This document shows, one piece after another, positions 4,334-40,160 of a stretch of 64,000 nt of DNA. How positions within the stretch are numbered: the stretch's first letter is position 1; each line of letters begins with the position of its first letter. The position numbers were made by a program, and so were the translations under genes. The DNA lies in contig MGEK01000004.1 in assembly GCA_001791325.1 (NCBI GenBank), forward strand, positions 8,566 through 72,565. Direction: 5' to 3'. The DNA comes from Candidatus Uhrbacteria bacterium RIFCSPLOWO2_01_FULL_47_25 (lineage in GTDB: Bacteria; Patescibacteriota; Patescibacteriia; GWA2-46-9). Below the pieces are notes generated by a model. The model searched no databases. It worked only from the letters and a program-made list of their open reading frames with translations, and had not been told where the DNA came from.

Positions 4334-5449
4334 ATGCCAACGGCAATTTATCAAAAATATCGTCCTCGCGTTTGGGCCGAGCTGGCTGATCAAAACCATA
4401 TTAAGACCACGCTGGAACATGAAATTTCCCGCGGTCAAATTACTCACGCCTATTTGTTCGTTGGACCGCGCGGCGTAGGCAAAACAACAGCCGCGCGGCT
4501 GCTGGCCAAATCCGTAAACTGCCAGAATCGCAAGCCGGGCGTTGCTGAACCGTGCAATGAGTGTGAAGTATGCGGTCGCATTCAGGCCGGTCGATCTTTT
4601 GACATTATTGAGATAGACGCCGCTTCGCATACAGGCGTTGATCACGTTCGTGAGCATATTTTGGAAAGCGCCGAGGTGTCCGCCGGGCATGGGACTTATC
4701 GTATTTTTATTATTGACGAAGTGCATATGCTCTCTACGGCGGCTTTTAACGCCATGCTCAAAATTTTAGAAGAACCGCCAGCGCACGTCATTTTTATATT
4801 AGCCACGACCGAAGTGCACAAAGTGCCAGCTACCATTATTTCCCGTTGTCAGCGTTTTAATTTCAAAAAAATTCCGGCTGACGCCATTCGCCAACGTTTG
4901 CGCTCAATCACGCAGGCGGAAAAAATGAACGTTGACGAAGAGGTGCTAAATGTTATTGCCGAACATTCAGACGGCTCATTGAGAGATGCCGAGAGTATGT
5001 TGGGGCAGGTGCTTGCTCTGGGCGGCAAAAAAATTACCATGCTGGAAGCTTCGCTCGTGATTCCTCGCTCCAATCTTAATGAAGCGGCAAATTTAGTAGG
5101 ATTAATTTTGAAAAACGACGCGGCTGGCGCTTTGTCATTGGCCAATAACTTAGTTGAGCAGGGGATATCAGTTTCGGTGTTTATGCAAGATATTATTGTC
5201 TGGTTAAGAAATATGCTTCTGGCTAAAGTAGGGGAACGATTGGATCTTTTTTCTCGCGACACTTTAGGAGAGTTGCAGAGTCGTCTGTTAAAAGACGCGG
5301 TTGGCGTTTCGGCGCGTGAGGCGCAGGAGCTAATAGACATTTTTTTGAGGCGACGACAGAATCTGGGAGAATCGCCCTTGCCGCAGCTGCCCCTGGAGCT
5401 TGCCATTATTGAGGCCTGTACTTTGAAGGCTGATGGAATGGAGTCATAA
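4334..5449 (+). CDS. dnaX: DNA polymerase III subunit gamma/tau (short form)
   Basis: YQKYRP, GPRGVGKTT, Zn-binding Cys cluster, EIDAAS, DEVHML, SRCQRF. Confidence 0.97.
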   Translation: MPTAIYQKYRPRVWAELADQNHIKTTLEHEISRGQITHAYLFVGPRGVGKTTAARLLAKSVNCQNRKPGVAEPCNECEVCGRIQAGRSFDIIEIDAASHTGVDHVREHILESAEVSAGHGTYRIFIIDEVHMLSTAAFNAMLKILEEPPAHVIFILATTEVHKVPATIISRCQRFNFKKIPADAIRQRLRSITQAEKMNVDEEVLNVIAEHSDGSLRDAESMLGQVLALGGKKITMLEASLVIPRSNLNEAANLVGLILKNDAAGALSLANNLVEQGISVSVFMQDIIVWLRNMLLAKVGERLDLFSRDTLGELQSRLLKDAVGVSAREAQELIDIFLRRRQNLGESPLPQLPLELAIIEACTLKADGMES

Positions 5450-5718
5450 CCGAGCTCTTCTTCTTTTTTCATAAGGTGTTTGAGCTGGGAGATCGTCTAA
5501 CTGGCCCCGTTAGAATTTACAAGGACTTCCTCCTAAAGCTGCCGGGTCGTCTAACGGTAGGACGCCAGGTTCTGGCCCTGGTAATCTAGGCCCGCCCCCA
5601 CACTAATAAGATCATCTCATAAATTTGTGGTGAAATGTAATAATGTAATGTTGTACATATGCCTGCGGGGTCGTCTAATGGTAGGACACGACGCTCTGGA
5701 CGTCGGTATCTAGGCACG

Positions 5719-5889
5719 CCCCGCACCAATTTAACTTTGTCTAGATGTTATTGTATTATACTTTTACATAAAAAGATCTAAGAAGCCGATCTGGGAGATC
5801 GTCTAATGGTAGGACACGACGCTCTGGACGTCGGTATCTAGGTTCGAATCCTAGTCTCCCAGATTGGTTTCTTAGAAATTGGTGCGGGG
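5719..5889. mobile_element. tRNA-carrying inverted-repeat element (inner layer)
   Basis: Perfect 14-bp TIR ccccgcaccaattt/aaattggtgcgggg. Confidence 0.8.
5792..5862 (+). tRNA. tRNA-Gln(CTG), intact innermost copy
   Basis: Complete cloverleaf with GGTTCGAATCC T-arm; no encoded CCA. Confidence 0.95.
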
Positions 5890-6117
5890 TGAAAGTCCTA
5901 GCCCCGCAGGCATGTGTACAATTTGAGAAAGTTGTTAATCTGAACGATTAGTGTGGGGGTGAAAGTCCTAGTCTCCCAGCTTAGCCACTTTATGAACAGT
6001 TAATTAGTGCTGGGTAAGATAGTCTGATTTCAAAAAATAAAAATGAAAGGGCTTGGCTAGAAAATGATATTTTGCTAAAATAGTCGCAGTAATTATTAAT
6101 CGTATAACGTAATCTTT

Positions 6118-6195
6118 ATGGGTGGAAACAGCGCCAAGCGCGCGAGAATGAAGCAGGAAGCAAAACGAGCCAAAAAGCGGCGAGCCAAAAAGTAG
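6118..6195 (+). CDS. 25-aa highly basic peptide MGGNSAKRARMKQEAKRAKKRRAKK
   Basis: ATG...TAG ORF, GC-richer than its AT-rich surroundings; below the ORF-track cutoff. Confidence 0.45.
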   Translation: MGGNSAKRARMKQEAKRAKKRRAKK

Positions 6196-6251
6196 TTTTT
6201 GATTATTTTTTTAAATGTCATTGACCACAGAATCAATGGCAAAATTGACTT

Positions 6252-7304
6252 ATGCTATATAATCCTAACCTCTATTCCGTAGAAAGCGTTACCGACGGTC
6301 ATCCTGATAAAATTTGCGATCAAATTTCTGACGCTATTCTTGACGAATGTTTGCGTCAAGATGCCAATAGCCGTGTAGCCATTGAAGCTTTTGGCAGTCA
6401 TGGCATTATTATTGTGGGCGGTGAATTAACGACAAAAGCATGGGTTGATGCGCCAGCGATAGTTAATGGGGTATTGAAAGACATAGGATATGATGATCAT
6501 TATGGCGTAATTTCAAATATCGTTGGCCAATCGCCAGATATAGCAATGGGCGTTGATACTGGCGGCGCTGGTGATCAGGGAATAATGTATGGATATGCCA
6601 CCAATGAAACGCCGGAGTATCTACCTATCGGCGTTGTGCTGGCGCACAAATTGACCAAAGGGCTGGCGGAACTTCGCCAGAGCGGGAAATTGAAATGGTT
6701 ACGGCCGGATGGCAAAGCAGAGGTCATCATACAAAACGGACGAGCGCATAAAGTATTGGTCAGCTGTCAGCACGATGAAGGTGTAAAACAAGAAGAGCTC
6801 AAAAAAGCTTTGATTGAAAATTTAATCATACCCACAATCCGTGATTCATCCGGCGTTGATATTTTTGTAAATCCAACTGGTAAATTTGTGCGCGGCGGTT
6901 TTGACGCGGATACGGGCCTGACTGGTAGAAAAATTATGGTTGATACTTATGGAGGTCTCATTCCGCATGGCGGAGGGTGTTTCTCTGGCAAGGATCCTAC
7001 AAAAGTTGACCGTTCTGCCGCCTATATGGCGAGATTCGCGGCAAAAAATATTGTCGCGAATGGCATGGCGAAAGAATGTTTAGTGTCGGTTGCTTATGCC
7101 ATCGGCATGGCCGATCCTCTAATGCTTGAGGCCGTGAATGAAAAAGGAGAAAGCGTGGTAAAATTGCTTAATCATAAATTTGATTTTCGCCCCTTGGCCA
7201 TTATTGAGCGGCTGAACCTTAGACGGCCGATTTATCGTCAAACCGCGGCTTATGGCCATTTTGGCAAAGCAGGTTTTCCTTGGGAAGAAATAATTAATCT
7301 TTAG
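6252..7304 (+). CDS. metK: S-adenosylmethionine synthetase
   Basis: ESVTDGHPDKICDQISD, GAGDQG, GLTGRKI, GGGCFSGKDPTKVDRS, YGHFG. Confidence 0.98.
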   Translation: MLYNPNLYSVESVTDGHPDKICDQISDAILDECLRQDANSRVAIEAFGSHGIIIVGGELTTKAWVDAPAIVNGVLKDIGYDDHYGVISNIVGQSPDIAMGVDTGGAGDQGIMYGYATNETPEYLPIGVVLAHKLTKGLAELRQSGKLKWLRPDGKAEVIIQNGRAHKVLVSCQHDEGVKQEELKKALIENLIIPTIRDSSGVDIFVNPTGKFVRGGFDADTGLTGRKIMVDTYGGLIPHGGGCFSGKDPTKVDRSAAYMARFAAKNIVANGMAKECLVSVAYAIGMADPLMLEAVNEKGESVVKLLNHKFDFRPLAIIERLNLRRPIYRQTAAYGHFGKAGFPWEEIINL

Positions 7305-7685: not shown

Positions 7686-10600
7686 TTGGTGAAAATGTCT
7701 AAATTATTGGGGGCAAAAAAAAGAAAAAACCCCGCACATCACGGACGCAATAAGCCAGTGGCGCGGGGCCAAAGACAAGAAACTCGCGCAAAAAAACGCC
7801 TCAAAGAACGTGTTTTGGGCGTTATTCAGCGTCAGGTCAAATTAAGGGAACTAAAAGTTTTGGCGCGGCGCGGCGTCATAGGTACGGTAGTGGTCGTTTT
7901 GTTTATTTCCAGTCTTTTTGTCAGAGCCGAGCCCAATCCGTTGCTTGTTCATGAAGTAATTTATCCGCAGTCTTGCCGTGGCACTTGGCAGGGGATGAAT
8001 AATATTTTTACGCAGGAGCTTGATGCCAGAGCCGAGGCCGATGATTTTAATAAGACCAATAGCGCCATGCCCGCCTTGGGCGAACCAACTGTTGCGGCAG
8101 TGCCGGGCAAGGAAGAGTACAACGCTTTCACGGTGTCATTGCCAATTCTTGACCAGCAGTCAAATGTTGATACGTTGATGGATCAGCCGTCAGATACAGA
8201 TCAGGATTTACAATTGATTATTCCACCCATTATTCCTTCTCAAGAGGAGTCGCCCGTTGAAAACGCGCCTTCTCAAAATACACCCATTGAAGATAATGAC
8301 AATAATAGTGAAAATAAGAGTTTAGAAAACGCTCCTTCAGAACAAGTTCTTGGGGAAGAGGACAAAGCAGATGATTCCAGTCAGCCGGTAACAGACGAAC
8401 AGCTGTCAACGGAGAAATCCAATGAGGAACAGGAACAGCCGTTATCGCCACCCTCACAACCTCAACCCCAAGAGCCGCTAGATACTCAATTATTTCCAGA
8501 ACCTGAAACAAAGCCATTGGCGCCACCCGACGATACGTTGCCAATGCCGACAGAACCGCCGGCAACAGAACCGTCAGGAGCGGAACCGTCGTCAACAGAC
8601 CAGCCGATAATCAATTTCAACAATTTGTTGGATAAACTGATTAATAAAGCTTTGGCCGAGGAAGACGCTATCCTGAATACAGATACCAACGCGAGTACGG
8701 CAGATACAAATGGCGCCGAAACTAAAGTTGATTCTAATAGCGAGGCAGACGGCTTTAGTGTTGAAGACATAGTGAAATCAGTGGCGGAAAAGATTGGAGA
8801 TATTGTTAGCGATTCTGCCGATAAGGTGAGTGAAATCATCGCGCCAATTACGGCGGAGCCAGTGGATATACAAAATTTAACACCCGGCACCCCGTCCCTA
8901 GAAACAAAACCGGAGGCTGAAGATTCGCCGTCTTTGCTCGGCACTTTATTTGATGCGGTGGGGCAGGCAATATCTGCAATTACGGATTTAATTTCGCCAT
9001 TGCCGCCGTCAGTTTTAGAGGCTCCATCATTCGCGATACAGGATAGTAATATCTTAAAAACGGAAAATGGCACAATGGCCTGTGCAGACTTCACCCCTCC
9101 TGCCACCACGCAAATTGAACAGGCGTCGCTCGGTCTATCATATACTTTAAAAGATCAATCGCCATTGCCAAACGAGCAGTCTGGATTTCTATGGGCTGAA
9201 TATACTCAAGATAGACAGAATTGGATGATATTAAGTTCCATTGAAGACACGAACTCATCAGTTGAATCGGCTTATCATTTATTTAATTTTCCTCCCGACT
9301 TTGACGCTGGACGCATAAGCGAGACCATTGTTCGTTTGCGCTGGTTTGGCAAATATGATGAGCCGGAAATTTTTATAGATAGTTTATGGCTAGATGTTGC
9401 TCGCCTTGGCGACAGTGAGCAGGAAAAGCCTTCGGAATTAAAAACCGCTAAAAAAGATTTTGCCGCTTTTGAGGACCCGGTTTTTAATTTAAGCTTTGAT
9501 CCGCAAGTGCCCCTATCAGCAAAGAGAGGCGTCATATTTGATAACAGCCAGTCGCAATCAATCATAGAAAAGTATAAAGAAAGATATAAGCAGTGGCTGG
9601 AATCATGGGCGAATTTTATTATTCAAAAACCATTGTCATTCGCGCGTAACGCGCTGGCGCAATCTCCGTCGGCTGATCAAGCGACGCCAAACGACGCGGC
9701 TCTATGGCATGAGACTAATCTGGATATTTCCGCGCGTCTATTGACTAAGGATTATGGACCCACTGACATTGTTCCAGAATTATTGCGCTTAAATTCCGGG
9801 CAATTCAAAATATCGCTTGCCGCGCGCGCCTTCCGCCCTGGCGCCTATATTTTACAAACAACAATTCAAAAAGGGGAGAGTGTCCAAACCCTAGAACAAG
9901 ATTTCACTTGGGGGGTACTCGTCGTAAATACTGACCAGTCGGTTTATAAAACCGGCGACGAAGCTTCATTCTTCTTTGGGGTCTTGAACGATAAGGGAGA
10001 GACTGCCTGCGACGCGACGCTTGAAGCGAAAATTACGGATCCTGCAGGACAGGCGGTGACACTAGCCACGGCTGACGGCACCATCAAGTCCTCTAGTTCA
10101 TGCGCGAAAAACAGCGTCACTGATACGCCTGACTATGGGGCGACTTATCATACAACCACGGCAGGCACCTATGCACTGGCAGTGACGGCTACGACGGTTG
10201 AGGGGAGCCACACCATCACTGACACTTTTTCAGCACAAGATGACCTTCCGTACCGCGTTCGTCGCAGAGGCGCGAGTCGTATTTATCCTTTGGCCAAGTA
10301 CGAGATGTCAATTGAAGTTACGGCACGCAATGATTTTAAGGGAACTGTTACCGAGCGCGTTCCGTTAGATTTTATTGTCACGCCGTCGTCGAATTTTGTA
10401 ATTACTGCAGTAGAAGACGCCCAAGCATTAACGTGGGATGTTGCGCTTCAAGCAGGAGAGAGCCAAAACTTCACGTACGAGTATAACGCACCTGACATTT
10501 CTCCAGCCATTTTTCATCTGGGAGAATTTTCTTTAACCGCTTCCGGCGCCGATCAGCCGATATTTATTGAACCCAATCAGTGGGAAATAGCGAGCGACGG

Positions 10601-13600
10601 ACTTGACCCAGTTATTATCCACGCGCCAGAGGTGGCGCTCCGTCCAGAAGTGCGCGGAAAGGCCGAGCGATTAGCAAGAGAGGTGCCGCTTCCCGAGAAC
10701 GTTCCGCATCACACCCGTTCAATGGAAGGAAATTTTGAAAGCCGGAAAATGAATAGACCCGTCAGTCTTGCTCTGGCTCGCGAGCAGGTGCCGCCAAACG
10801 CAAAGATTTCTGTTGTTGACGCTTATGGTAAAGAAATTACTGACGGTATCGTAGTAAATACAGAAGAAGATACTATGACCGTGGATATTAACCCCGATGC
10901 TAAAGGTATGCGCCCGGGAAAATATACTCTTTATGTGACGGATCCTGACACCGAAGAAGTGCTGGCTGAACAGGATTACACTTGGGGAGTGTTGGCTTTC
11001 AACCCTGATTATGCCGTGTATCCGCCTAACACAACAGCCAATCTCTCCTTTGGCGTGCTTGATGATGCCGGGCGGGTGCTTTGCGATGCGGCCTTGGTCG
11101 CTATTATTGCCGATCCTAGCGGGAATGAAACAGTGCTTGGCACTGGCGATGGTTCGATACGGGTAAACGAGGAATGCTATCAAATGGAAGATACGCAGAA
11201 ACCAGATTATGAAGCCAACTTTGACACAACTATTCCCGGTATCTATCAAATGACCATCATCGCCAAAAGTAAAAACGGCGAGCGGACGCTCAATGATTCG
11301 TTTTCTGTTGATCCAAACGCCGCGTTTTACCTCAAGCGCACAGGGCCGACCCGCACATATCATCCAGCCACTTACAATTATTCCCTCGACTTTACCGCCA
11401 AAGAGGCTGGCACTTATGACATAACGGAAAAAGTTCCTGCTTCATTTACTATAACGGGTGATGGTTTTACCGTAACCGAACAAGACCAAACAAAAATTTT
11501 ACACTGGCAAGTAACGGCCGTGGCGGGGGAAACTAAAACACTGGCTTATCGTTTCAAAGGACCGCCGCTCTCGCCGTATCTTTTTTTACTGGGAGCGGCG
11601 GAAGTAAAAACATCCAGCCCAAATCAAACATGGGTTGAGCCCAGAGAGTGGATGCTGGCCTCTGACAACGCTTGCTCTTCCGACGTTGATCCTTCTGGAA
11701 ACTGGAATACAGCTGGTTCATGGACCTCATGCGGTGGCGTGGTACCGACGACAACTGACACCGTCGCCATTGTTGACGGCGATACTATCACGATCGACTC
11801 CGCGCCTAATTCTGTCATTTCCGTCAACATCAATCTCGGTGGTACGTTAAATGGCGGCTCGGCGACTCTCAATATCAACAATACCGCCGCATCTGGCACT
11901 TCTTTTACCAATAGCGGTACGTGGACCTCCTCAACCGGCACCGTTAATTTTGGCAGCGACGTTGCGTTAACAATGCTTTCAGGAAGCTTTATTGGTTCTA
12001 ATAATTTCAATAACATTACCCATACTTTTACTCCCACTGCTGCAAGAACATACACCGTGGGCGCGGCAGTTGAGATTGGTGGTAATTGGACGTCAACTCC
12101 GGGGTCTACCAGTAACGCCCGCGATTTAACCATTAATTTAAGTGGAGCAACTACTGTTACTGGGACACTAACTCTTGATGGTCGAGGTTGTAATAATGGC
12201 GCTGCTGATGGCACCGCTTCTACCACGCAATTTTCTACCAATGGCCAGAACTTAACAGTTCGCGCGATAGTTGTTGATGGTATTACGAATGGGGATGGTT
12301 GCCGATTTACCACAGCTAACTCTTCTGTTGTTACGTTTACGGGGACGGGTACTACGACGCTTTTCACTTTAGGTCAGACAGGTAGCACCGCCTTGATGAC
12401 TACCGGGACTACTACTGAATGGGATGTTACTTCCGTGTCAGGCACCCCGACGCTTTTTTCCACTTCCGGGACAACAATTACCGTCCACATTTTAAAAATC
12501 GCTGCCTCCGCAACCATTGTCAACCTTGGCGCAGCCTTTACGATTGACGCCAATTCTGGAAATAAATTATGGATTAATTCTGGCATTTTAAATCAGGAAA
12601 ACAGAACTATTACCGCCGGAGCTAGCGCAACTCTGCAGATTGATTCTGGCGGCACTTTGTGCTTGGGCGGGACAACTGCTTCCACCACGGCTAATTGTGC
12701 GTCAGGCGCGACTCAAGCTACGGCTCAAGCAATGCCTTCGTTTACCACCTATACTTTTGACGCCGCCTCAACCGTTTCCTACCTTTCTAACGCTAACGTC
12801 GTGTTTTCCAGTACCCCGAACTATGGCAACTTAACGCTCAACCCGGTCTTGATCAGCACCAACCGTACCTATACACCTGGAGGAGCCATGACCATTAACG
12901 GTGATTTCACTATCAACCCTAATGAGTCGTTTACCGATACTCCCTCGCTCACCGTCGATCCACTTAATAACTATACCGTGGCCTCTGGTAAAACCACTAC
13001 CATTACGAAGACCAATGCCGCCACTTCTGTTCTTATTCTGCCGTTAGCAGTGAGCCAATACCTGTCAACAGGTAAGTTAGTCATTGCCAGTGGTGGAACA
13101 CTCAATGGTGCTATCAGTTCTGCCACGATTATCATTAAGGACACCGGCGCGGCTTTTACCAATAGCGGCACTTATACTTATGGCCTCACAAAAGTGTCTT
13201 ATACGAACACCACTAGCTCCACTGTGTTAGGCATGACCGGCACCAGTGGCACGAATGGATATTATGATTTAGACATAAATGGCACTGGAGGAACCCATAC
13301 GCTGGGGGCCAACACCACGGCCAATAATGCCACCACCATTACCGCCGGCACCTTAAACACTTCGGCAGCCAGCAGCTTCACTTTGACCACTAGCACCTTG
13401 AGCATCACGGGCGGTCTAACGGCCAATGCCTCGTTTATCAATATAACCGGAGCCGGCGCGGCTTTTACTAAGTCTGGCACATTTACTTATGGTACTTCAA
13501 CAGTTGAATATACTAATGCTACGGGAGCGACTGTTTTGTCTATGAACAATGTTGGCAGCACCAACGCCTATTACACTATTTGGGTTGCCAATGGCTCTCA

Positions 13601-16600
13601 TACTCTCGGAGGGGATATCCGAGTTTATGGCGATTTAGCATCAGTATCTGGCACCCTTTCTGACGCGACTGATAGCGTAACGGTAGTTGGTAGTGTTACT
13701 TGTTTTGCTGCGTTTGCGTGTGGAACCATTACATTTACGGGCGGCACTTTTACCCAGATCGTCGCTGCTAATCAGACTTTTGGCACGAATGCATCAGATA
13801 GTACTATAGATTGGACTTTTAATAACCTGACTTTTGATAGTTCTTCTGGATCAAACACTATTACTTTAGGTAATATAGGTTTGACTGGTACCGGTCAAAT
13901 TATTGTTAATGGAACATTAACAATTGGCACAGGGGGCACAATGACCACTCTGCAGGCTGATACCTATGACCGCATCATTGACGCGAACATCGTGACCATT
14001 ACCTCAAAAGGAATCTTGTTCGCCTCGTCTTCGGCGTTGTTCACCGTTGCCGGAGCATTTACTCATACTTCCGGCGGCACTTTCACTCACAGCAACGGCA
14101 TTGTCACATTTGACGGCACCGCGGCCTTGAATTTTGTAAATAATACAACGACTTTTTATGATGTGGTGGTTGCTACCGGGGTAACAAGAACAATTACCGC
14201 AGGAGCCAGCAATGTTCTTACTATAGCCAATACTCTGACAATTAATGGAACAGGAAGAATGGTCTCATTTTCTTCCGAACAATTGTATCTTACAAAAAAT
14301 GGTGAAACGCCGCTCATTGTGGGCGGGGCAACAGCAGTGAATGGACTAACCCTTGTTGTATATAGGCCAGCTGGCACGGCCACTAACGTCGCCGCCACGA
14401 CTTATAATTACCTCTATATATTACCGACCGCGGCGACGACATTAACCCTTCTCGGCGCAACCACAGTCAACGTCAACCTTTTAGTGACAGGTCCTGGTGC
14501 CGGTATAGTTGCCACTCTGGACACGAATGGCCAAACCCTCAATGTCGTCGGCGCTGTCGTCGCCGGTTTTGGTACACCGGGTGCTGTTATTATAGGCGCG
14601 AGCACAGTGGATGTGGACGGGGATGTATTAATTTGGGATGTTTCCGGAAGCTATATCAGCATGACTTCGGGCAGCTTGAATGTTGGCGGCAACTGGTCTA
14701 ATGGAGCGAATTCAGTCTTTACTGCCGGCACTGGCACCGTTACTTTTGACGCCGCGGACGCCGGTAACACCATCGCCACGGGCGGAACTGACAGTAACCA
14801 TGATTTTTACGATGTCATCTTTGATAATTCAGCCGGCTCTTGGATATTCCAGACAAACGACGTCTTAATCTCCAATAATTTAACCGTCACAAATACATCG
14901 GCCACAGGAGTTAACGCCTCGGTGAATGTGACGGTCAACGGCAGTGTTACTGGAGCGGGTGTAATTAACATTACTAATAGCGTGACCTTTACCCAAAAAG
15001 TGGCAGCCGTCAGTAAGACTTTCGGCACCACCTCTGGTGCCAATGATTGGACATTTTATAACTTAGCCTTTGAAAACTCCTCGGGACCCCGGACCATTGA
15101 TACTAATGGAGGGTCGGGACAAATTATCGTTTCCAATACCCTAACTATTGGTAATGCCGATGATTCCACGGTGACCACTCTTGACAACAACACTACTAAT
15201 GACCGCATCATTGACGCGAACATCGTGACTATTACCTCTAAAGGAAGCTTGACCGCTTCTTCCTCGGCTTTATTCACCATTGCCGGCGATTTCACCAATA
15301 ACGGCACCTTCACGCATAGTAGCGGCACAGTTACTTTTGACGGCGCGAGCGCCAACATTAACATACCAGACGCGGGCATAACATTTTATAAGGTTATTAT
15401 TGATATCAGTAGCCCCAATGCTAAAACCTTAGTGAACGGTGCCACGATTGCCGTGATGACTGTGGCTAACACCCTCACCGTTAATGGCACTGGCGCCTTG
15501 ACTTCCGGAGGAGGCAATGAACAGGTTAAGCTCACCAAAGACGGCGATACCGGAGGAGTGCCTTTAACGGTTGGCGGTGCCACAGCCGTTTCGGGGGTGG
15601 CCGCTTTTATTTACGCTCCGGCCGGCGCCGCCACCACGGTTACCGGAACTACTTACAGCTCTCTTACTATTAACCCTACTGCGGCTACCACGTTGACGTT
15701 AGGCGAGGCTGTCATAACAAGTGGCGCTTTGTATGTCTTTGGTCCCAATAGCACTACCGCCGCCACTCTAAATACAAATAACTACGACCTGACAGTTGGT
15801 GGAGCCTTGTTTGTCGGTGCATGGTATTTGGGTTATGCCGATGGAGTGGTTAATTTGGGAAGCAGTACGGTTACGGTGAGTGGGGACGTTTGGATAATGC
15901 AAGATACGGGATCCGAACTTGATGCCGGCTCATCTACCCTGACGGTTGGCGGAAACTGGGTTTGGTTTTCCGCCTTTAGCTCCGGCGGTATTTTTACGGC
16001 GGGCACGAGTACCGTCAAATTTAATGCCGGTGATGCAGGGAATACCATTGATGCCGGCGCCGGCGCGTTTAACAACGTTATATTTGACAACGCCGCCGGC
16101 TCCTGGACGTTTCAGACCACGGCGGCGACAATTTCTGGAGATCTCACCATGACCGCGGCCACGCAGGTTAACGCTTCGGTTAATGTTACAGTGAACGGCA
16201 ATGTATCGTGCGGTGTGACATGCGGAACGATTAATATCACAAACGCTGTTACGTTTACCCAATCCGTTGACGCGGCTAAGAATTTTGGCACCAGCGTTGT
16301 CGATGACGCAACAGTCTGGACATTTAGCAGTCTGACCTTTACAGCCACTACAGATACCATAACTACTAGCTCCAATGGCACCGGCAATATAAATGTTACT
16401 GGCACCTTAACTATTTCCGGCTCAACTACTCTGGATGCCGGCGATCGTAATTGGGTTCTATCCGGCGCTGGCACGCCCTTCGCGCGAACCGGAACTTTCA
16501 CCGGAAACACATCCACTTTTAATTATACTTCAACCACCGGAGTTGACGCCCTTTCCTCGGCCGCCATGACCGGTTCTAATGCCTACTACAATCTCACTAT

Positions 16601-19600
16601 CAACTCTTCCGGCGACACCTTCACGGCTGGTGTGGCTGTTGCGGCTACTAACAAAGTGCTCGTAACCGCCGGTATCCTTGCCATGGGTGCCAATGCTTTG
16701 ACCGCAGGCTCCACAGGTGTCACTGACTCTGGCCAAATTAGTGTGGCTTCCGGTCATTCTCTAACCTCAAGTGGCACCGTCACCATCGTTAGCTCGGCCG
16801 CAAGTACAGCGAGTTGCCTTGGCGGAACAACCCTGCCGGGGTGCACTGGCGCAGTGGGCACACTCACTTTATCCACTCTTGTTATCGGTGACGGAGCCAC
16901 CACCATGACCACGGCTTTTGGTGGTACCACTCCGAGCATGGCCATTTCTACGCTTCTCAATATCACTACGAACGCCACCTTCACCGCCGGTACGGGAAGT
17001 ACTATTACTTTGTCAGCGGCTGGCACTCCCATTACTCGAGACGGGAACTTCAGATGCGGTACAAGCACGGTTGCTTATACTTCCTCCACCGGAGTTGACG
17101 CCCTGTCTTCGGCCGCCATGACCGGTGACTGCACAACCGGAAACGCCTTCTACAACCTAGTTATAAACGGTACAAACAATTTTCCCGTTACTAACGATAT
17201 TATTGTTACTAATAATTTAACCGTGACGGCAGGGTCACTTACTGGTACAAGCAATGTAACCGCCAACAGTAATGTTGCCTGTGGCGTTACTTGCGGCTCG
17301 ATTACTTTGACCGGCGGCACGTTTCTCCAATCAGTAGGGGATGCCAAAAATTTTGGCACAAATGTAGACGAAGACGATACTTGGACATTTAACAATCTTA
17401 CTTTTACAGCCACCACAGATACCATAACCACGAGTTCCAATGGTACTGGCAACATAAATGTTACTGGCGACTTAACTATTTCCGGCTCAACCACTCTGGA
17501 CGCAGGAGACAGAACATTCGTTTTGTCAGGTAGTTCCGGCTCGCCGTTCGTGAAAACAGGCACTTTCACTTACAATACTTCCACGATTAAATATACTGGT
17601 ACGACAGTAACGGTATTATCTATGACCGGCACCGGTGGTAGTGATGGGTACTATAATCTCACGGTGGACGGCACCGGGCCATTTAACGCCGGCGGAGCAA
17701 TTGTAGCAAATAACGATGTCACGGTAACGTCCGGCACACTGGCTATGGGGGCGAACGCCCTCACAGTGAACGGCGGCGACATCTCGGTCAGCGGTATCTT
17801 CTCGCAAACCGCGGGCAGCGCCACCACAGTTGTCACTACTGGCTCCATTGGAGGCGCGGGTACTACGACCTTTGGCGAGCTTAACATTGGCACTGGTTCA
17901 AGTGACCAAACTACTACGGCTGGCGGCGACTTCACTGTCTCCGGCGTTCTGACCACTGTCTCATCTTCCAGCACCAACAATTTTGACGCTTCTTCTAAGA
18001 CCATCACCCTCTCGGGCACAGGCACGCCGTTTGTGAATAACGAGACGTTTACTTATGGGACTTCCACTATAAAATACACTGGCAGTGATACCACCACAGT
18101 TCTTGCGATGACTGGCACCGGTGGGACAAATGGATATTATAAATTGATAACTCAAGGCACAGGTCCGTTTAACGCTGGCGGAAGTATCACAGCCAACAAC
18201 AATATCAACATTACGAGCGGCACTTTTGCCGTTGGCGGAAACACCTTAATTGGTGCCAATATCACTGTTGACGGCGGTTCGTTGTCGGCAACAACGAGCG
18301 GCGGAAAAATTAAAATTTCCGGCGGCGGAGATTTGTCCGTCACGAGCGGAAGCATTGTTACGGCTGATGTGGCGACCCCGGTTGAAATCACAAGTTCTGA
18401 TACCGCTACGCCAACCTATGTTGGCGTGAGCGTTACTGGCGCTTCCAGTACAATAAATATCCCCGAATTGGATATTGATTATTTAAAGAGCACGGGATTT
18501 GTCGTTGGCGCGAGCGTTACCGTCACGGCCATGGATAAGGTGAGATGGGGCGGGAGCGGTGGAACATGGAATGGACAGGCGGCGGTGGGCGAAGTGCTGT
18601 TAGACGCCACGAGTTTAACTAAGACGCTTGATGGTCATGTTTTTCCAAATACATGGGCGAGCCAAGGCGGTTCTGATTGCAACGTCAGAGCGAATACTGA
18701 TGGTACTGTCACCATGACAAATTTTTCCGGAACATATAGTGGCGAAGACTATGATTGCGATAATGGCGGTACGGTAACATGGGTCAGCGGGCTCTCGATA
18801 GCCGGCACGGTTTATACTGACGAAGGGTCAACTCGTATGACCACTGGACCGACCGTGCGCGTAAAAGTTGATGGAGCAGGGGACTTCAGTGATGTGGCAG
18901 ATACTACCAATTGCCCGGGGAGTAGCCCCTGCGGTGAATACCTTATCACAGGTGTCACTCCTACGGACAGCGGAGCAGTGCTTACGATTTATCTTGATGA
19001 TGAAACAGAGAATGCCACCACTGTCACCATATCGAGCGGCTTGGATTTAACGGGCATAGACCTTTACCAAAATCGTGTCATCGTGCGATACGAAACCGGC
19101 AGCAGTATTACTAATACCAATTTAGACCAATATGACTGGGTTAACGAAGGTGATGCGAATATTGATGGAGACATTGGTTTCCAGGTGACAGCCGGCGCTT
19201 TGACAGTCTCTAAAGACAGAGAACTCCACATCTGGACAGGCAAGACTTTCACGCCGGGCGGAAGCGTTACCACAAATACCGGAGGCAGTGGAGTTGGTGG
19301 AGACGTCCATATTGTGGGAATTTTTACAGCCACGACTACCGAGAGTCATTCGGTCGGCGGCTCCTGGACTGATACTGGCACGTTCAATCCCGCCAGCTCA
19401 ACGGTCACGTTTGCCGCCACCTCTGGCACGAAAACCATCACTTCAACCGGCTCGTCATTTTATAATTTGATTATCAACGGTTCGGGCGGCGAGTTTCAGC
19501 CACAAGACGCCATGGTTGTTACAAACGACCTTACTATAACCGCGGGCACGCTGTCGGGAACGCAAAACGTGACGGTTAACGGCCATGCTGTAGGTACCGC

Positions 19601-21356
19601 CGGAATAATCAGTCTTACGGGGGGCACATTTGAGCAGCGAGTAATCGCTAACAAAAATTTTGGTCCAACGACCGCCAGCACCAGCTGGACGTTTAGCACG
19701 CTCATTTTTTCTAACAGCAATGCTGGAGCCACGGAAATTATGATTTTTACTGAACCCTGTAGTACTTGCGGCGTGACCGTTAGCAGTATTCTTTATATTG
19801 GAAAATCTGGCGATGCGGTTGACGCGACAACTACTCTAAATGCTGAAGACAAAATTTGGACACTATCGGGCACGGGCGGCGATCCTTTCCAGATTTTGGC
19901 CTCACCAGCGGGCGATTTAGCGCCAGCTGCTGCCACTTTTGTTTACACTGGCAATAACGAGGCGGGTAATACCACAGTGCAGTCCGAAACCTACATTGGG
20001 TTAGAGTTTAACAACGGTTCAGAAATATATGCCTTGGAAGGGGAAACTAGTGGCAGCACGACAGTGACAATTACTGCCGGCACTTTGAATCTTAATGGAC
20101 AAACATTAACTTCTAACGGCAATCTCATTGTCAATGGTACGTTGTCAGGAGCAACTGATGTTATGGTGAATGGCAATGTTACTGGCAGTGGCATAGTAAC
20201 CTTGACCGGCGGTACGTTTGAGCAGGTTGTGTTTACCGACAAAACGTTTGGCTCAAGCTCTGGTACGAATACGTGGACTTTTAGTGGTTTGAAATTTAAT
20301 AACTCTAGCGGTGCGGCTGGCCGCACGATTACGCCAAACGCCGGTACGGGCGATGTAGTGGTTTCTGGAACACTGACGCTTGGCGACAGCGGAACGCAGA
20401 TAATTACCTTTAATAATGATACTAATGATAGAGTCTTTGACTTGAATGGCGCGATTCTTATATCAACCCAAGGCTCCTTTACTGCTTCAAATAGTGTCGC
20501 GTTCTCTGTAGCAAGTAATTTTACCAATAACGGCGCCTTTGCCCATTCCAGCGGTACCGTGACATTTGACACGACAGGCATAAGCATTCTCGCTGGCACC
20601 GGTTCGCCCGCCATAACTTTTTTCAATTTCACTTCAACCACGGCCGGAAAAACAATCAATTTTACAGCCGGACAAACTTTTAGAATAAACGGCAAATTGA
20701 CTATTTTGGGCGCTGACCTAAATCCGGTTAATCTTCATTCAACTTCATCTCCGACGCTATGGACAATAAATCATCAAGGAACAGAAAGCGTGCAATACGC
20801 CGATATAGACGATAGCGCTTGCGACGGTAGTAGCAACATCAGTCTTGATAGCACGTCCACCGGCACTAACGATGGGACTTGTTGGCTTTTCCCGAGTTTG
20901 TCTTTCACCATCAGTCCGACAAGCGTTAGTCTTAATTTAACATCCCCGACTTTTACTACGACGGCCACTAATACATTGACCGTGACCGCGCGAGCTGAAT
21001 TTGGCTATACTTTGACTGCGTATGAAACTGGCGTGCTAACACATACGGCATATCCGAGCAAGACCATAGATGATTGGACTGGCATCCATCCAACTGGTTC
21101 GGCTTGGTCAAGTACTTGTATCGCGGCAAGTGAATGCGGTTTTGGTTATAATACGAGCGACGCTGATATTGGCATGAGTACTAATTATTCCGCTTTTGCC
21201 GGTTTATTAGACGCGCCCGGCGACGCCGTGGCGAGTTCCTCGGGACCAGTCACTGGCGAGGCCACCACCATCACCTACCGCTCTTCAGTTAGCGCCATTC
21301 AAGCCGCTGGGCCATATCAGACGACCATTATATATATAGTGACGCCACAGTTCTAG
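7686..21356 (+). CDS. Giant (4,556 aa) cell-surface adhesin-like protein; start may be ATG 7695
   Basis: Basic N-terminus plus TM; Pro/acidic linker; two homologous Ig-like modules (TWGVL..N.D..VY); about 3,000 aa of Thr/Gly/Ser beta-helix-like repeats; C-terminus YQTTIIYIVTPQF (WxL-like). Confidence 0.85.
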   Translation: MVKMSKLLGAKKRKNPAHHGRNKPVARGQRQETRAKKRLKERVLGVIQRQVKLRELKVLARRGVIGTVVVVLFISSLFVRAEPNPLLVHEVIYPQSCRGTWQGMNNIFTQELDARAEADDFNKTNSAMPALGEPTVAAVPGKEEYNAFTVSLPILDQQSNVDTLMDQPSDTDQDLQLIIPPIIPSQEESPVENAPSQNTPIEDNDNNSENKSLENAPSEQVLGEEDKADDSSQPVTDEQLSTEKSNEEQEQPLSPPSQPQPQEPLDTQLFPEPETKPLAPPDDTLPMPTEPPATEPSGAEPSSTDQPIINFNNLLDKLINKALAEEDAILNTDTNASTADTNGAETKVDSNSEADGFSVEDIVKSVAEKIGDIVSDSADKVSEIIAPITAEPVDIQNLTPGTPSLETKPEAEDSPSLLGTLFDAVGQAISAITDLISPLPPSVLEAPSFAIQDSNILKTENGTMACADFTPPATTQIEQASLGLSYTLKDQSPLPNEQSGFLWAEYTQDRQNWMILSSIEDTNSSVESAYHLFNFPPDFDAGRISETIVRLRWFGKYDEPEIFIDSLWLDVARLGDSEQEKPSELKTAKKDFAAFEDPVFNLSFDPQVPLSAKRGVIFDNSQSQSIIEKYKERYKQWLESWANFIIQKPLSFARNALAQSPSADQATPNDAALWHETNLDISARLLTKDYGPTDIVPELLRLNSGQFKISLAARAFRPGAYILQTTIQKGESVQTLEQDFTWGVLVVNTDQSVYKTGDEASFFFGVLNDKGETACDATLEAKITDPAGQAVTLATADGTIKSSSSCAKNSVTDTPDYGATYHTTTAGTYALAVTATTVEGSHTITDTFSAQDDLPYRVRRRGASRIYPLAKYEMSIEVTARNDFKGTVTERVPLDFIVTPSSNFVITAVEDAQALTWDVALQAGESQNFTYEYNAPDISPAIFHLGEFSLTASGADQPIFIEPNQWEIASDGLDPVIIHAPEVALRPEVRGKAERLAREVPLPENVPHHTRSMEGNFESRKMNRPVSLALAREQVPPNAKISVVDAYGKEITDGIVVNTEEDTMTVDINPDAKGMRPGKYTLYVTDPDTEEVLAEQDYTWGVLAFNPDYAVYPPNTTANLSFGVLDDAGRVLCDAALVAIIADPSGNETVLGTGDGSIRVNEECYQMEDTQKPDYEANFDTTIPGIYQMTIIAKSKNGERTLNDSFSVDPNAAFYLKRTGPTRTYHPATYNYSLDFTAKEAGTYDITEKVPASFTITGDGFTVTEQDQTKILHWQVTAVAGETKTLAYRFKGPPLSPYLFLLGAAEVKTSSPNQTWVEPREWMLASDNACSSDVDPSGNWNTAGSWTSCGGVVPTTTDTVAIVDGDTITIDSAPNSVISVNINLGGTLNGGSATLNINNTAASGTSFTNSGTWTSSTGTVNFGSDVALTMLSGSFIGSNNFNNITHTFTPTAARTYTVGAAVEIGGNWTSTPGSTSNARDLTINLSGATTVTGTLTLDGRGCNNGAADGTASTTQFSTNGQNLTVRAIVVDGITNGDGCRFTTANSSVVTFTGTGTTTLFTLGQTGSTALMTTGTTTEWDVTSVSGTPTLFSTSGTTITVHILKIAASATIVNLGAAFTIDANSGNKLWINSGILNQENRTITAGASATLQIDSGGTLCLGGTTASTTANCASGATQATAQAMPSFTTYTFDAASTVSYLSNANVVFSSTPNYGNLTLNPVLISTNRTYTPGGAMTINGDFTINPNESFTDTPSLTVDPLNNYTVASGKTTTITKTNAATSVLILPLAVSQYLSTGKLVIASGGTLNGAISSATIIIKDTGAAFTNSGTYTYGLTKVSYTNTTSSTVLGMTGTSGTNGYYDLDINGTGGTHTLGANTTANNATTITAGTLNTSAASSFTLTTSTLSITGGLTANASFINITGAGAAFTKSGTFTYGTSTVEYTNATGATVLSMNNVGSTNAYYTIWVANGSHTLGGDIRVYGDLASVSGTLSDATDSVTVVGSVTCFAAFACGTITFTGGTFTQIVAANQTFGTNASDSTIDWTFNNLTFDSSSGSNTITLGNIGLTGTGQIIVNGTLTIGTGGTMTTLQADTYDRIIDANIVTITSKGILFASSSALFTVAGAFTHTSGGTFTHSNGIVTFDGTAALNFVNNTTTFYDVVVATGVTRTITAGASNVLTIANTLTINGTGRMVSFSSEQLYLTKNGETPLIVGGATAVNGLTLVVYRPAGTATNVAATTYNYLYILPTAATTLTLLGATTVNVNLLVTGPGAGIVATLDTNGQTLNVVGAVVAGFGTPGAVIIGASTVDVDGDVLIWDVSGSYISMTSGSLNVGGNWSNGANSVFTAGTGTVTFDAADAGNTIATGGTDSNHDFYDVIFDNSAGSWIFQTNDVLISNNLTVTNTSATGVNASVNVTVNGSVTGAGVINITNSVTFTQKVAAVSKTFGTTSGANDWTFYNLAFENSSGPRTIDTNGGSGQIIVSNTLTIGNADDSTVTTLDNNTTNDRIIDANIVTITSKGSLTASSSALFTIAGDFTNNGTFTHSSGTVTFDGASANINIPDAGITFYKVIIDISSPNAKTLVNGATIAVMTVANTLTVNGTGALTSGGGNEQVKLTKDGDTGGVPLTVGGATAVSGVAAFIYAPAGAATTVTGTTYSSLTINPTAATTLTLGEAVITSGALYVFGPNSTTAATLNTNNYDLTVGGALFVGAWYLGYADGVVNLGSSTVTVSGDVWIMQDTGSELDAGSSTLTVGGNWVWFSAFSSGGIFTAGTSTVKFNAGDAGNTIDAGAGAFNNVIFDNAAGSWTFQTTAATISGDLTMTAATQVNASVNVTVNGNVSCGVTCGTINITNAVTFTQSVDAAKNFGTSVVDDATVWTFSSLTFTATTDTITTSSNGTGNINVTGTLTISGSTTLDAGDRNWVLSGAGTPFARTGTFTGNTSTFNYTSTTGVDALSSAAMTGSNAYYNLTINSSGDTFTAGVAVAATNKVLVTAGILAMGANALTAGSTGVTDSGQISVASGHSLTSSGTVTIVSSAASTASCLGGTTLPGCTGAVGTLTLSTLVIGDGATTMTTAFGGTTPSMAISTLLNITTNATFTAGTGSTITLSAAGTPITRDGNFRCGTSTVAYTSSTGVDALSSAAMTGDCTTGNAFYNLVINGTNNFPVTNDIIVTNNLTVTAGSLTGTSNVTANSNVACGVTCGSITLTGGTFLQSVGDAKNFGTNVDEDDTWTFNNLTFTATTDTITTSSNGTGNINVTGDLTISGSTTLDAGDRTFVLSGSSGSPFVKTGTFTYNTSTIKYTGTTVTVLSMTGTGGSDGYYNLTVDGTGPFNAGGAIVANNDVTVTSGTLAMGANALTVNGGDISVSGIFSQTAGSATTVVTTGSIGGAGTTTFGELNIGTGSSDQTTTAGGDFTVSGVLTTVSSSSTNNFDASSKTITLSGTGTPFVNNETFTYGTSTIKYTGSDTTTVLAMTGTGGTNGYYKLITQGTGPFNAGGSITANNNINITSGTFAVGGNTLIGANITVDGGSLSATTSGGKIKISGGGDLSVTSGSIVTADVATPVEITSSDTATPTYVGVSVTGASSTINIPELDIDYLKSTGFVVGASVTVTAMDKVRWGGSGGTWNGQAAVGEVLLDATSLTKTLDGHVFPNTWASQGGSDCNVRANTDGTVTMTNFSGTYSGEDYDCDNGGTVTWVSGLSIAGTVYTDEGSTRMTTGPTVRVKVDGAGDFSDVADTTNCPGSSPCGEYLITGVTPTDSGAVLTIYLDDETENATTVTISSGLDLTGIDLYQNRVIVRYETGSSITNTNLDQYDWVNEGDANIDGDIGFQVTAGALTVSKDRELHIWTGKTFTPGGSVTTNTGGSGVGGDVHIVGIFTATTTESHSVGGSWTDTGTFNPASSTVTFAATSGTKTITSTGSSFYNLIINGSGGEFQPQDAMVVTNDLTITAGTLSGTQNVTVNGHAVGTAGIISLTGGTFEQRVIANKNFGPTTASTSWTFSTLIFSNSNAGATEIMIFTEPCSTCGVTVSSILYIGKSGDAVDATTTLNAEDKIWTLSGTGGDPFQILASPAGDLAPAAATFVYTGNNEAGNTTVQSETYIGLEFNNGSEIYALEGETSGSTTVTITAGTLNLNGQTLTSNGNLIVNGTLSGATDVMVNGNVTGSGIVTLTGGTFEQVVFTDKTFGSSSGTNTWTFSGLKFNNSSGAAGRTITPNAGTGDVVVSGTLTLGDSGTQIITFNNDTNDRVFDLNGAILISTQGSFTASNSVAFSVASNFTNNGAFAHSSGTVTFDTTGISILAGTGSPAITFFNFTSTTAGKTINFTAGQTFRINGKLTILGADLNPVNLHSTSSPTLWTINHQGTESVQYADIDDSACDGSSNISLDSTSTGTNDGTCWLFPSLSFTISPTSVSLNLTSPTFTTTATNTLTVTARAEFGYTLTAYETGVLTHTAYPSKTIDDWTGIHPTGSAWSSTCIAASECGFGYNTSDADIGMSTNYSAFAGLLDAPGDAVASSSGPVTGEATTITYRSSVSAIQAAGPYQTTIIYIVTPQF

Positions 21357-36874: not shown

Positions 36875-37853
36875 AGTAACGGAAGATATAAATAAGGCCA
36901 GTGAATCATTTGATTCAAATAAAACTGCGGATAAAGAGAAAAGCCGAGAGGCCATGCGCTCAATAGTTTTACGATGGATTGAAAGCGAGGATGAAAAAAT
37001 AAAAAAACATAATATAGAAGAAGAATCCGTTGTTAAAGATGATAGGGGAAAAAGAATAATTGAAGCGCGGTCATTTGATATCGCCACCGTAGAAAAAACC
37101 GAAAGGGAAAAAGAAACTATTCACAAAGCTCGTCAGCCAAAAGCGTTGTCGGTCAAGAAAAGAGAGCAACCATCAGGAGAAATGGTGGATCGCCGAGAGC
37201 GCGACATTCCGGAATTCCATGTTACTCCCTCATTGCTACCGCGCCGTAAAGTGACCAACGGATTGGCAGTGCTGTATTCTTTTATATGGGTTACGTTTAT
37301 CGCGGGTATAATGATTTTAAGTTTTGGTGTTTACAAACTAGGGTGGAATGACCCTTTGACCAATCAATTATTGAACTACGTGCCATTGCCGTATGGTTTT
37401 GTTCGTTATCATCCAATTTGGTACAGTATTTATCGTCAGGAATACCAAGCCATTAGTCGTTTTCGCGGTCAACAAGCAGTAAGCACTCGTTTAACTGTTT
37501 CGCCCGAAGAGATTGAAGGGATTTTATTAAGGCGAACGATTGCCAATGATTTAGCGTGGAGTAATGGTTTATGGGTTACTAGCGAAGAAGTAGAGGGTGA
37601 ATTTGACAGTATTGCATCAAGGGCTGGATCAACAGAAGAGGTTGAACGTGCCATACAATCATTATGGGGATACAGCCTTGATGAATATAAGCAACGTGTA
37701 ATTAGACCGTATTTGCTCAAAAAGAAATTATTCGCTGTTTTGGCCGCCAACAATTTATTGCGTCGTAAAACCAGTGAGGCTAACGATTTACAAGTACTTG
37801 ACGCCTATCTTGATGGGCTTAGGGCATCAACGCCAGTGGTACTGTTTCGCTAA
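36861..37853 (+). CDS. Membrane protein with SurA/PrsA N-terminal-like domain; start probably ATG 36861
   Basis: Charged N-terminus; TM; VTSEEVEGEF; YSLDEYKQRVIRP. Confidence 0.55.
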   Translation: MNGNKVTEDINKASESFDSNKTADKEKSREAMRSIVLRWIESEDEKIKKHNIEEESVVKDDRGKRIIEARSFDIATVEKTEREKETIHKARQPKALSVKKREQPSGEMVDRRERDIPEFHVTPSLLPRRKVTNGLAVLYSFIWVTFIAGIMILSFGVYKLGWNDPLTNQLLNYVPLPYGFVRYHPIWYSIYRQEYQAISRFRGQQAVSTRLTVSPEEIEGILLRRTIANDLAWSNGLWVTSEEVEGEFDSIASRAGSTEEVERAIQSLWGYSLDEYKQRVIRPYLLKKKLFAVLAANNLLRRKTSEANDLQVLDAYLDGLRASTPVVLFR

Positions 37854-37955
37854 TCCCGTTAAAGCCCAAAGATAAAAATTTATATGGAGCTGGAGGCGAG
37901 ATTTGAACTCGCGACCCATCGCTTACGAAGCGATTGCCCCGCCTGCCATCGCCTA

Positions 37956-38137: not shown

Positions 38138-38194
38138 TCGGGACATGGCGGGCAGGTCTACCGTTGAGCTACTCCGGCATGCTTTAATAAAATA

Positions 38195-38265: not shown

Positions 38266-38271
38266 AAAAGA

Positions 38272-40128: not shown

Positions 40129-40160
40129 GTTAGCGGCTGGCGCGAAGTCCCGCCCTCTTC

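Follow-up and report, generated by a model that had tools for sequence, protein, structure and literature searches.

The 64,000-nucleotide stretch of DNA analysed here (the window; positions 8,566 to 72,565 of contig MGEK01000004.1) comes from the ultra-small groundwater bacterium Candidatus Uhrbacteria bacterium RIFCSPLOWO2_01_FULL_47_25, whose assembly (G000; 1.2 Mb in 40 contigs, completeness 100) contains a single ARAGORN call for tRNA-Gln(CTG). This gene lies inside the split remains of further tRNA-Gln genes, and the question is how a tRNA gene comes to be enclosed, layer within layer, through T loops of its own kind. We propose that the locus is probably the scar of a serial, DNA-level insertion of gene-less, tRNA-carrying selfish cassettes into the T loop; that a small GIY-YIG nuclease mobilises them in trans is a prediction that may equally well hold or fail. 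The nested cassette arrangement is real and recurrent and apparently undescribed: no description of tRNA genes nested via loop-inserted terminal-repeat cassettes was found in the full-text literature searched, outside which most subscription papers and supplements lie. It is most likely not a new RNA-splicing route.

The intact tRNA-Gln(CTG) reported in the initial annotation at 5792-5862 (window positions; all features of the locus are on the forward strand) was confirmed by ARAGORN and by the Rfam tRNA model (60.7 bits). Its acceptor stem is lengthened by a 5′ extension at 5777-5791, which pairs with 5862-5876 (15/15, including two G-T pairs), and it is preceded by an AT-rich leader (5731-5776, 20% GC). 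The gene is enclosed by a left arm (5719-5732) and a right arm (5876-5889) that form a perfect 14-bp inverted repeat, and the right arm is followed by the tetramer TGAA (5890-5893), which we read as the cassette's own end. This inner cassette splits the T loop of a second tRNA-Gln(CTG), the middle shell, after the left tetramer CACG (5715-5718). The 5′ part of the shell (5664-5714) is identical to the inner gene over 5671-5714, and its 3′ part (5894-5921) comprises the AGT of the T loop, the 3′ strands of the T stem and of the acceptor stem (5902-5908), the discriminator and the extension; the 5′ extension of this stem (5651-5663) pairs with 5909-5921 (13/13, including one G-T pair). The middle shell is in turn the cargo of an outer cassette, which has its own AT-rich leader (5608-5650, 26% GC) and a perfect 13-bp inverted repeat (5595-5607 and 5947-5959), and is flanked by CCCG (5591-5594), at tRNA positions 54-57 where the intact gene has TTCG, and by TGAA (5960-5963). 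Both inverted repeats are thus as initially described, and the junction letters together with an acceptor stem paired at 7/7 positions bear out the split T loop of the middle tRNA-Gln. The outer leader may serve as a promoter, and a promoter scan called no site in it; a sigma-70-like site in the inner leader (5731-5759, 9/12) was rejected as chance level (2 sites against 1.3 +/- 1.0 in shuffled sequences).

At both junctions, the T-stem strand CTAGG is followed by CACG or CCCG and the left arm, and the right arm by TGAA, AGT and CCTAG, so that each cassette sits after the fourth base of a 7-nt T loop. The layout is the same in both cassettes: an arm, an AT-rich leader, a whole tRNA with an extended acceptor stem, an arm and TGAA. 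Acceptor stems pair at 7/7 positions in the inner gene, in the middle shell and between 5486 and 5972, and stem extensions of the reported size, about 13-18 bp, are present at all three layers when G-T pairs are counted. The predicted fold of the 546-nt region lies 12.6 standard deviations below that of shuffled sequences (z = -12.6). Between 5450 and 6250, no open reading frame (ORF) of at least 60 amino acids was found except an antisense frame of the upstream dnaX-like ORF. Since the arms, leaders, extensions and acceptor stems of the two cassettes all differ, with compensating changes, the two layers would derive from different donors; the notion of one element that repeatedly copied itself does not hold, because these are two different cassettes.

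Three nested tRNA-Gln genes had been proposed, and the inner and middle ones stand, whereas the outermost (5486-5979) is a composite of two 5′ pieces and not one tRNA. The locus has four 5′ starts and only three 3′ ends. The outermost 5′ extension (5468-5485) pairs with 5979-5996 (17/18, including three G-T pairs), and the fragment that follows (5486-5504) consists of the acceptor strand TGGGAGA, the 7/7 partner of 5972-5978, and the start of a D arm. This fragment reaches only the D loop, where a 35-nt remnant (5505-5539), absent from the initial annotation, begins with CCCCGTTAGAA (5505-5515), an orphan left arm of a genome-wide family; TTTA would follow, then a 3′ piece that resembles a D arm (5520-5526), then 13 nt whose origin is uncertain. 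The arms that precede the outer junction (D, anticodon and T) belong to a second 5′ half (5540-5590), with the acceptor strand TGCCGGG, a D arm, a CTG anticodon arm and the 5′ T-stem strand. Its own acceptor 3′ strand is absent, it scores 19 bits with the Rfam tRNA model (under the cut-off), and TGCCGGG against 5972-5978 gives two mismatches in seven positions plus two G-T pairs. The outermost 3′ part (5964-5996: AGT, 3′ T-stem strand, acceptor 3′ strand at 5972-5978, discriminator and extension) is the partner of the strand at 5486. An older layer may have lost its inner boundaries here through a deletion between T-arm repeats.

The same site in relatives shows fewer layers, the comparison that the initial annotation had suggested. 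In two members of the same family (G003 and G004), the dnaX-metK interval holds a plain tRNA-Gln with an extended acceptor stem and no layers, while G001, of the same genus, has one nested layer upstream of metK, with other arms and another cut point. Because the plain tRNA-Gln of G003 and G004 has such a stem, extended stems are normal for these tRNA genes, and each layer therefore represents a whole gene with its flanks. We further identified 12 tRNA-Gln T-loop cassettes that occupy the T-loop position found in G000 and whose CCC...GGG arms fall into several subtypes (G029, G047, G031, L052, L053, L054, L059, L060, L063, L078, L079 and L116). Six of them (L052, L053, L054, L059, L060 and L063) are among the 14 matches of a GTDB-wide pattern scan, which fell mostly in Patescibacteria; L078 and L079 come from a right-junction scan of phylum genomes, whose third match, L076, repeats L059. 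Two complete layers were seen only at the present locus, although a second right arm is present in L060. Further damage affects the shells in five of the 14 cases (the outer layer of G000, G031, L054, L063 and L116). Here and in L052, L054 and L063, the shell matches its inner copy letter for letter over 44-51 nt. A strict left-junction pattern matched none of 400 class genomes besides G000 and gives no prevalence because it is too tight, having missed G029, G047 and G031 in that very sample. The right-junction pattern matched at least 3 of 400 phylum genomes, and a right pattern longer by one base, which did not match G000 itself, at least 4 of 400 class genomes, where it yielded L116; one of those four matches, in G175 (L114), lies in a coding region and was discarded as chance.

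These cassettes bear on the origin of the four extra nucleotides at each junction, whose number had been noted to fit a 4-bp duplication in a TTCG loop. At the 13 Gln junctions that keep their right arm, the right tetramer is TGAA in nine, TGAG in three, TAAA in one and TTCG in none. The left tetramer is TTCG in only one of 14 and always ends in G, and the locus that kept TTCG on the left (L053) has TGAA on the right nonetheless. The arms of the Gln locus belong to a CCCC...GGGG family, of which a genome-wide scan for units of 26-320 nt found 116 elements in this genome. Identical 4-mers flank 57 of the 116 elements (shuffled pairing: mean 9.3, maximum 18), whereas identical flanks of width 3 and 5 occur in four elements and one element, respectively, so the 4-nt geometry is real. 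The outward tetramer TATG ends 50 elements; 21 of these differ on the other side, 14 of them by two to four bases, and the mirror case does not occur. A decaying duplication would be symmetric, and this one-sided pattern (21:0) is therefore not that of a decayed target duplication. TGAA is one of the end tetramers of the family (12 units, three with a matching other side). It was also considered that TGAA plus AGT had been selected as a substitute T loop; this was dropped because TGAA ends cassettes in D loops, in anticodon loops and outside tRNAs as well. The size of the extra segment fits a 4-bp duplication and the letters at both junctions are as first described, but these sequence comparisons point to a cassette-borne tetramer rather than to a copy of TTCG. 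We read the moving unit as arm to arm plus its own tetramer, the target tetramer before it being often similar, though not at tRNA loops.

The family is not confined to tRNA-Gln. In this genome, which is rich in palindromic repeats, 15 of the 48 ARAGORN tRNA calls lie between inverted CCC...GGG arms, compared with 29 of 2000 random windows. By eye, split shells match the amino acid of the cargo at Lys, Thr, Pro, Val and Arg loci, where D or anticodon loops are split and several loci have two concentric arm pairs and extra hairpins in the shells. The proposal that a tRNA-carrying mini-element repeatedly hits its own isoacceptor gene thus stands insofar as a full cognate copy lies in the T loop more than once and in 12 further cassettes, but the element is not Gln-specific, given that the family enters D and anticodon loops of other tRNAs.

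Several other tRNA genes of this genome were noted in passing. Within the window, a tRNA-Thr(CGT) at 37815-38385 on the reverse strand (contig C4, 46380-46950) has two concentric CCTGCCCGCC-type arm pairs and Thr-like shells, and adjoins a tRNA-Gly(CCC), before which lies a 5′ copy whose T loop bears a hairpin. At 40145-40245, a tRNA-Gln(TTG) has an acceptor stem lengthened by an 11-bp GC-rich repeat starting CCCGCCC, with no shell seen. Elsewhere, a tRNA-Thr(TGT) on contig C17 (5000-5620, reverse strand) with several stacked shells and two further 5′ copies with D-loop hairpins is the most layered tRNA locus seen in this genome; a tRNA-Ile on contig C32 (11253-11328, reverse strand), with the anticodon TAT, unusual in bacteria, lies between family arms; and a tRNA-Asn(GTT) on contig C6 (35835-36535) carries a 626-nt insert at position 35 when ARAGORN is run with introns allowed.

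The two cassettes of the Gln locus have no ORF, and a candidate enzyme acting in trans is encoded elsewhere in the genome. A 285-nt family element at 7615-7899 of contig C13, flanked by TATG on both sides, contains only one ORF, which encodes an 86-amino-acid GIY-YIG protein, and is a candidate autonomous member of the family. Homologs of this nuclease (E <= 1e-15) occur in 32 of 81 class genomes, G000 included. Of 30 loci of this homolog group, counting that of the query, 11 had arm pairs flagged by a script (eight tight by eye, one doubtful, two distant and probably chance); the script missed the query locus, whose ORF overlaps its own arm. A tRNA lies within 400 nt at 12 of the 30 loci. In the locus L088, the nuclease gene is enclosed by CGCG...TGAA ends, which the Gln cassette L079 also has. 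This genome has six small GIY-YIG genes; five are neighbours of a tRNA or tmRNA gene, including two that lie within shells, and the only ORF found tightly framed by a full arm pair is a GIY-YIG gene. By sequence, the nearest solved relatives of these nucleases are UPF0213 proteins and one SLX1 homolog; NCBIfam gave weak matches below the cut-off, for two of four nucleases. Reverse transcriptase matches are also present in the genome, and nothing ties them to the cassettes. No relative of the C13 nuclease was found in viral contigs.

Other small GIY-YIG genes were recorded alongside. In L051, L056, L057, L058 and L062 (match at 901; 304 in L056), tRNA-Gln shows a second layout, in which a 5′ copy whose T loop bears a double hairpin is followed by a small GIY-YIG gene and finally by an intact tRNA. 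Just downstream of a GIY-YIG match in G026 (C5:65438-65647), the locus L110 has what we take to be the start of an RNase P RNA, of which part is repeated upstream; genes for other structured RNAs may also be among the targets of the cassettes. On contig C34 of this genome (20720-20923, reverse strand), a small GIY-YIG gene with an in-frame TAG near its end lies between tRNA-Gly and tRNA-Leu.

Could the cassettes be ordinary transposons? Under this explanation, they would be non-autonomous elements akin to miniature inverted-repeat transposable elements (MITEs), moved by a conventional transposase or recombinase with a 4-bp duplication; the GIY-YIG genes and tRNAs would be passengers, and the tetramers at the Gln loci decayed duplications. 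The perfect terminal inverted repeats, the perfect 4-nt direct repeats around the 57 family members and two tyrosine recombinase (integrase-family) genes, both on other contigs, are consistent with it. The tetramer data (21:0, and TGAA on the right of L053 despite an intact TTCG on the left) are not, and neither is the framing of a GIY-YIG gene, rather than any other ORF found, by tight arms. Additionally, a search of the assembly for three transposase families, Y1 (PF01797), IS110 (PF01548) and DDE_Tnp_1 (PF01609), gave no matches. We regard this explanation as unlikely, although it is the strongest of the alternatives.

The cassettes were also compared with known mobile DNA. DDE MITEs share with the cassettes the terminal inverted repeats, the lack of coding capacity and the many dispersed relatives; they differ in that the flanks here disagree at 4/4 positions and in the family asymmetry, identical pairs notwithstanding. 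With IS200/IS605 derivatives, REP/REPIN sequences and MITEs, the cassettes have in common many short, non-coding, palindromic copies. Elements of the IS608 type insert beside a tetranucleotide and keep a terminal tetranucleotide of their own, with no duplication, and the cassettes likewise keep their own terminal tetranucleotide. In contrast to IS200/IS605 and REPIN/RAYT systems, there is no Y1 match in G000, the inverted repeats are truly terminal and the cargo is a whole tRNA gene. Overall, the cassettes may be likened to a non-autonomous terminal-repeat element with IS608-like ends, a nuclease like that of Ssn and the T-arm motif of SegB.

Ssn has been described as a protein of about 90 amino acids with a single GIY-YIG domain, encoded between GC-rich inverted repeats that also exist in many gene-less copies; in that report, NTS-ssnA-NTS is likened to an insertion sequence, with transposition offered only as a hypothesis, and the enzyme cuts single-stranded DNA a few bases upstream of the hairpin (PMC11893778). 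The C13 element and the homolog loci resemble it as single-domain GIY-YIG genes framed by inverted repeats, a resemblance that does not extend to the Gln locus. NTS, as described there, are short hairpins that flank the gene and not halves of one long terminal repeat. A shortened NTS pattern, which did not include the degenerate SRM motif, had no match in G000 at three mismatches, and the word tRNA is absent from the main text of the Ssn paper (PMC11893778). The phage T4 nuclease SegB, also of the GIY-YIG family, recognises the T-arm motif GGTTCRANTCC and spreads with neighbouring tRNA genes (PMC2330249), and the cassettes destroy this motif in each shell and keep it in the cargo copy. SegB differs in being a free-standing enzyme whose cuts, with 2-nt overhangs, fall mostly close to the 3′ end of the tRNA; it replaces the region by homing, with no terminal repeats, loop insertion or nested genes (PMC2330249). 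Finally, integrative elements use the tRNA T stem-loop as attB (Williams 2002, cited in PMC8371274), and here, too, the target is a symmetric T arm and a working tRNA gene survives. Such elements restore the target with a partial gene at the junction and encode an integrase, whereas in the present case the target is left split and an ORF-less unit of 171-365 nt contains a second, complete gene. This agrees with the initial rejection of phages and integrative and conjugative elements: both shells stay split, the working gene is internal and no integrase lies inside.

In the proposed mechanism, a cassette with a whole tRNA-Gln would insert after base 57 of the resident gene; the resident gene would die, the cargo tRNA would take over and, as the only intact T arm left, would receive the next cassette. 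Because the moving unit would carry its terminal tetramer, no target would be duplicated. Homology between cargo and resident tRNA is predicted to steer the cassette to a cognate gene, and a small GIY-YIG nuclease is predicted to start the event in trans, at the arms or at an intact T loop. The left tetramer would travel with the donor, as in a homology-guided transfer from an occupied allele, which would also explain the cognate match. The composite outer layer would be what a deletion between T-arm repeats leaves of an older layer. The shells would then be dead genes; their fresh look would have two causes, namely that they worked up to the last insertion and that the 44-nt repeat can be homogenised by gene conversion with the inner copy. 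Complementation of the damage by the cargo copy, as suggested earlier, is plausible. It is not a necessity at this locus, since the tRNA-Gln(TTG) encoded at 40160-40232 can read CAG through wobble.

Several points weigh against this mechanism. The order of the layers, with the inner one as the youngest, is one that we infer. The search patterns had some influence on the tetramer counts, in that the GTDB-wide scan fixed the left side and the two right-junction scans the right; nevertheless, the unselected sides agree on the tetramer picture. Perfect 4-bp direct repeats, in some cases of rare tetramers, flank half of the family, and this is what a genuine duplication would produce. Most acceptor stems have remained paired, yet 13 of 14 shells have altered bases 54-55; the contrast can be accounted for only if the left tetramer is assumed to come along with the donor. 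In none of the 14 Gln T-loop cassettes did we find a GIY-YIG gene between the arms; the nuclease-bearing matches of the GTDB-wide scan (four by script and two by eye, of 14) have a different layout, in which a short double hairpin occupies the T loop and the nuclease gene lies outside it. Moreover, a nuclease alone leaves the joining of strands unexplained, and a scan of viral contigs for the right junction gave three matches, none at a tRNA, so no vector was found.

A second alternative keeps the shells alive as an RNA device: the locus would give one transcript in which the helices act as processing signals or the halves are rejoined, for instance by RtcB, to yield extra tRNA-Gln species. 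RtcB is encoded in the genome, the shells show complete pairing, G-U pairs included, in their acceptor, T and extension stems, and leaderless cassettes in G029 and G047 would depend on the promoter of the shell. In-silico excision of the inner cassette plus TGAA turned the middle layer into a tRNA that ARAGORN calls (score 107.3, against 117.9 for the intact gene); the other choice of excision gave 98.9 and a result below threshold. The rejoined middle tRNA lacks T54 and T55, none of the excisions restores TTCG, and the outer layer yielded no ARAGORN tRNA in three of three excisions. No intron covariance model matched at E <= 10 in 5300-6300, and no Rfam intron or ribozyme model reached its gathering score in 10 related loci; the Rfam matches at the locus (MIR774, rli22, manA-II and CRISPR-DR47) are far under their cut-offs and were set aside. 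The tRNA splicing endonuclease (PF01974) had no match in the assembly, with a control search that gave matches in four archaea, and by eye the predicted junction fold is an asymmetric internal loop and not two 3-nt bulges around a 4-bp helix. Shells elsewhere gain hairpin insertions and lose ends, and TGAA ends cassettes in other loops and outside tRNAs. The suggestion that outer halves are rejoined after excision of the hairpin gained no support, and we judge an RNA device improbable, slightly more so than conventional transposition.

Group I introns in the T loop of tmRNA offer the closest RNA-level parallel, an insert in the T loop. According to PMC11915505, these are self-splicing ribozymes with U(-1) and omega-G boundaries in genes of at least 545 bp; one tRNA-Ala that the paper notes within the intervening sequence of a permuted tmRNA is arranged differently. 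At the present locus there is no such model or boundary, as the base before each insert is G (for the inner insert, under both boundary choices) and not the U of the group I rule, so the earlier dismissal of a group I intron is upheld. Group I introns, archaeal-type introns, integrative elements, DDE MITEs and IS200/IS605 elements each have a defining feature that the locus or its genome does not show, and the NTS consensus has no match.

A third alternative is a local accident, in which tandem tRNA duplications and unrelated palindromic repeats were rearranged in place with no unit-moving cassette. The identity of shell and inner gene over 44-51 nt here and in L052, L054 and L063 would fit, as would the abundance of palindromic repeats in the genome. 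The same insertion point and end tetramer recur, however, in 12 other genomes of several families, each of the two layers has its own arms, leader, extension and acceptor stem, with compensatory changes, and the arms always enclose a whole gene with its own extension; such an accident is highly improbable.

Misassembly of short tRNA repeats from a metagenome, for which three near-copies of a 51-nt repeat, the lack of a single record across the locus and a unitig at 5561-5700 in only two of four runs could be cited, has a very low probability given junctions crossed without mismatch in different studies, a concentric complementarity (z = -12.6) unlike that of collapsed repeats and the same layout in other assemblies. 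Logan unitigs with no mismatches cover 5250-5573, 5561-5700, 5685-5828 and 5833-6329 in run X1, a possible source, and 5250-5500, 5561-5695, 5685-5818 and 5837-6329 in run X7 from another study; runs X6 and X8 have all pieces except 5561-5700. Unitig support was thus obtained for every junction, each crossed by a unitig with at least 31 nt on either side and depths of 9-24, but no single record spans the locus, so the order across the 44-nt identical repeat (5671-5714 and 5799-5842) is not closed by one molecule. A contig of X6 in which 11 other letters link 5607 to 5946 (24 nt on its shorter side) was not used as evidence; it may be an empty outer-cassette version from another organism, and it is absent from the second coverage survey. 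Cover gaps at 5600-5659 (X6, X9 and X10) and at 5880-6020 (second survey) were left uninterpreted; the first survey covers 5880-6020 in X6.

The neighbours of the locus are protein genes on the same strand. Upstream lies an ORF of 371 amino acids (4334-5449) that we take to be dnaX from sequence motifs rather than a family search, and whose homolog lies upstream of the same tRNA in G003 and G004. Downstream, a lysine/arginine-rich ORF of 25 codons (6118-6195), with similar ORFs in that place in G001, G003 and G004, separates the tRNA from an ORF of 350 amino acids (6252-7304), presumably metK, a name taken from the initial annotation and sequence motifs. Farther downstream, an ORF of 4556 amino acids with many Thr/Gly/Ser repeats (7686-21356) likely encodes a giant surface protein.

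What the present locus adds to serial cassette insertion is two full layers at one site, an older remnant and a junction rule. Taken together with the genome-wide family, it allows a wider and more tentative suggestion, which we consider possible but hold at less than an even chance: an undescribed class of mobile DNA, in which a lone GIY-YIG protein of about 85 amino acids would mobilise tRNA-carrying terminal-repeat cassettes that keep their own end tetramer and home repeatedly, by cargo homology, into the loops of cognate tRNAs, so that a large share of the host tRNA set would be delivered and shuffled between lineages. Scanners for tRNA genes see the inner gene only and miss the shells. 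Whether small single-domain GIY-YIG proteins can drive transposition becomes a testable question, for which the locus offers a defined target (the T loop after base 57) and defined ends, and its genome a candidate enzyme; the Ssn report only suspects a mobilisation of repeats (PMC11893778). If the proposal is true, an essential gene can be targeted harmlessly by bringing a whole gene while the old one stays split, and past invasions leave a layered record. The tRNA genes of these ultra-small bacteria would then be the cargo of selfish cassettes and not a stable core.

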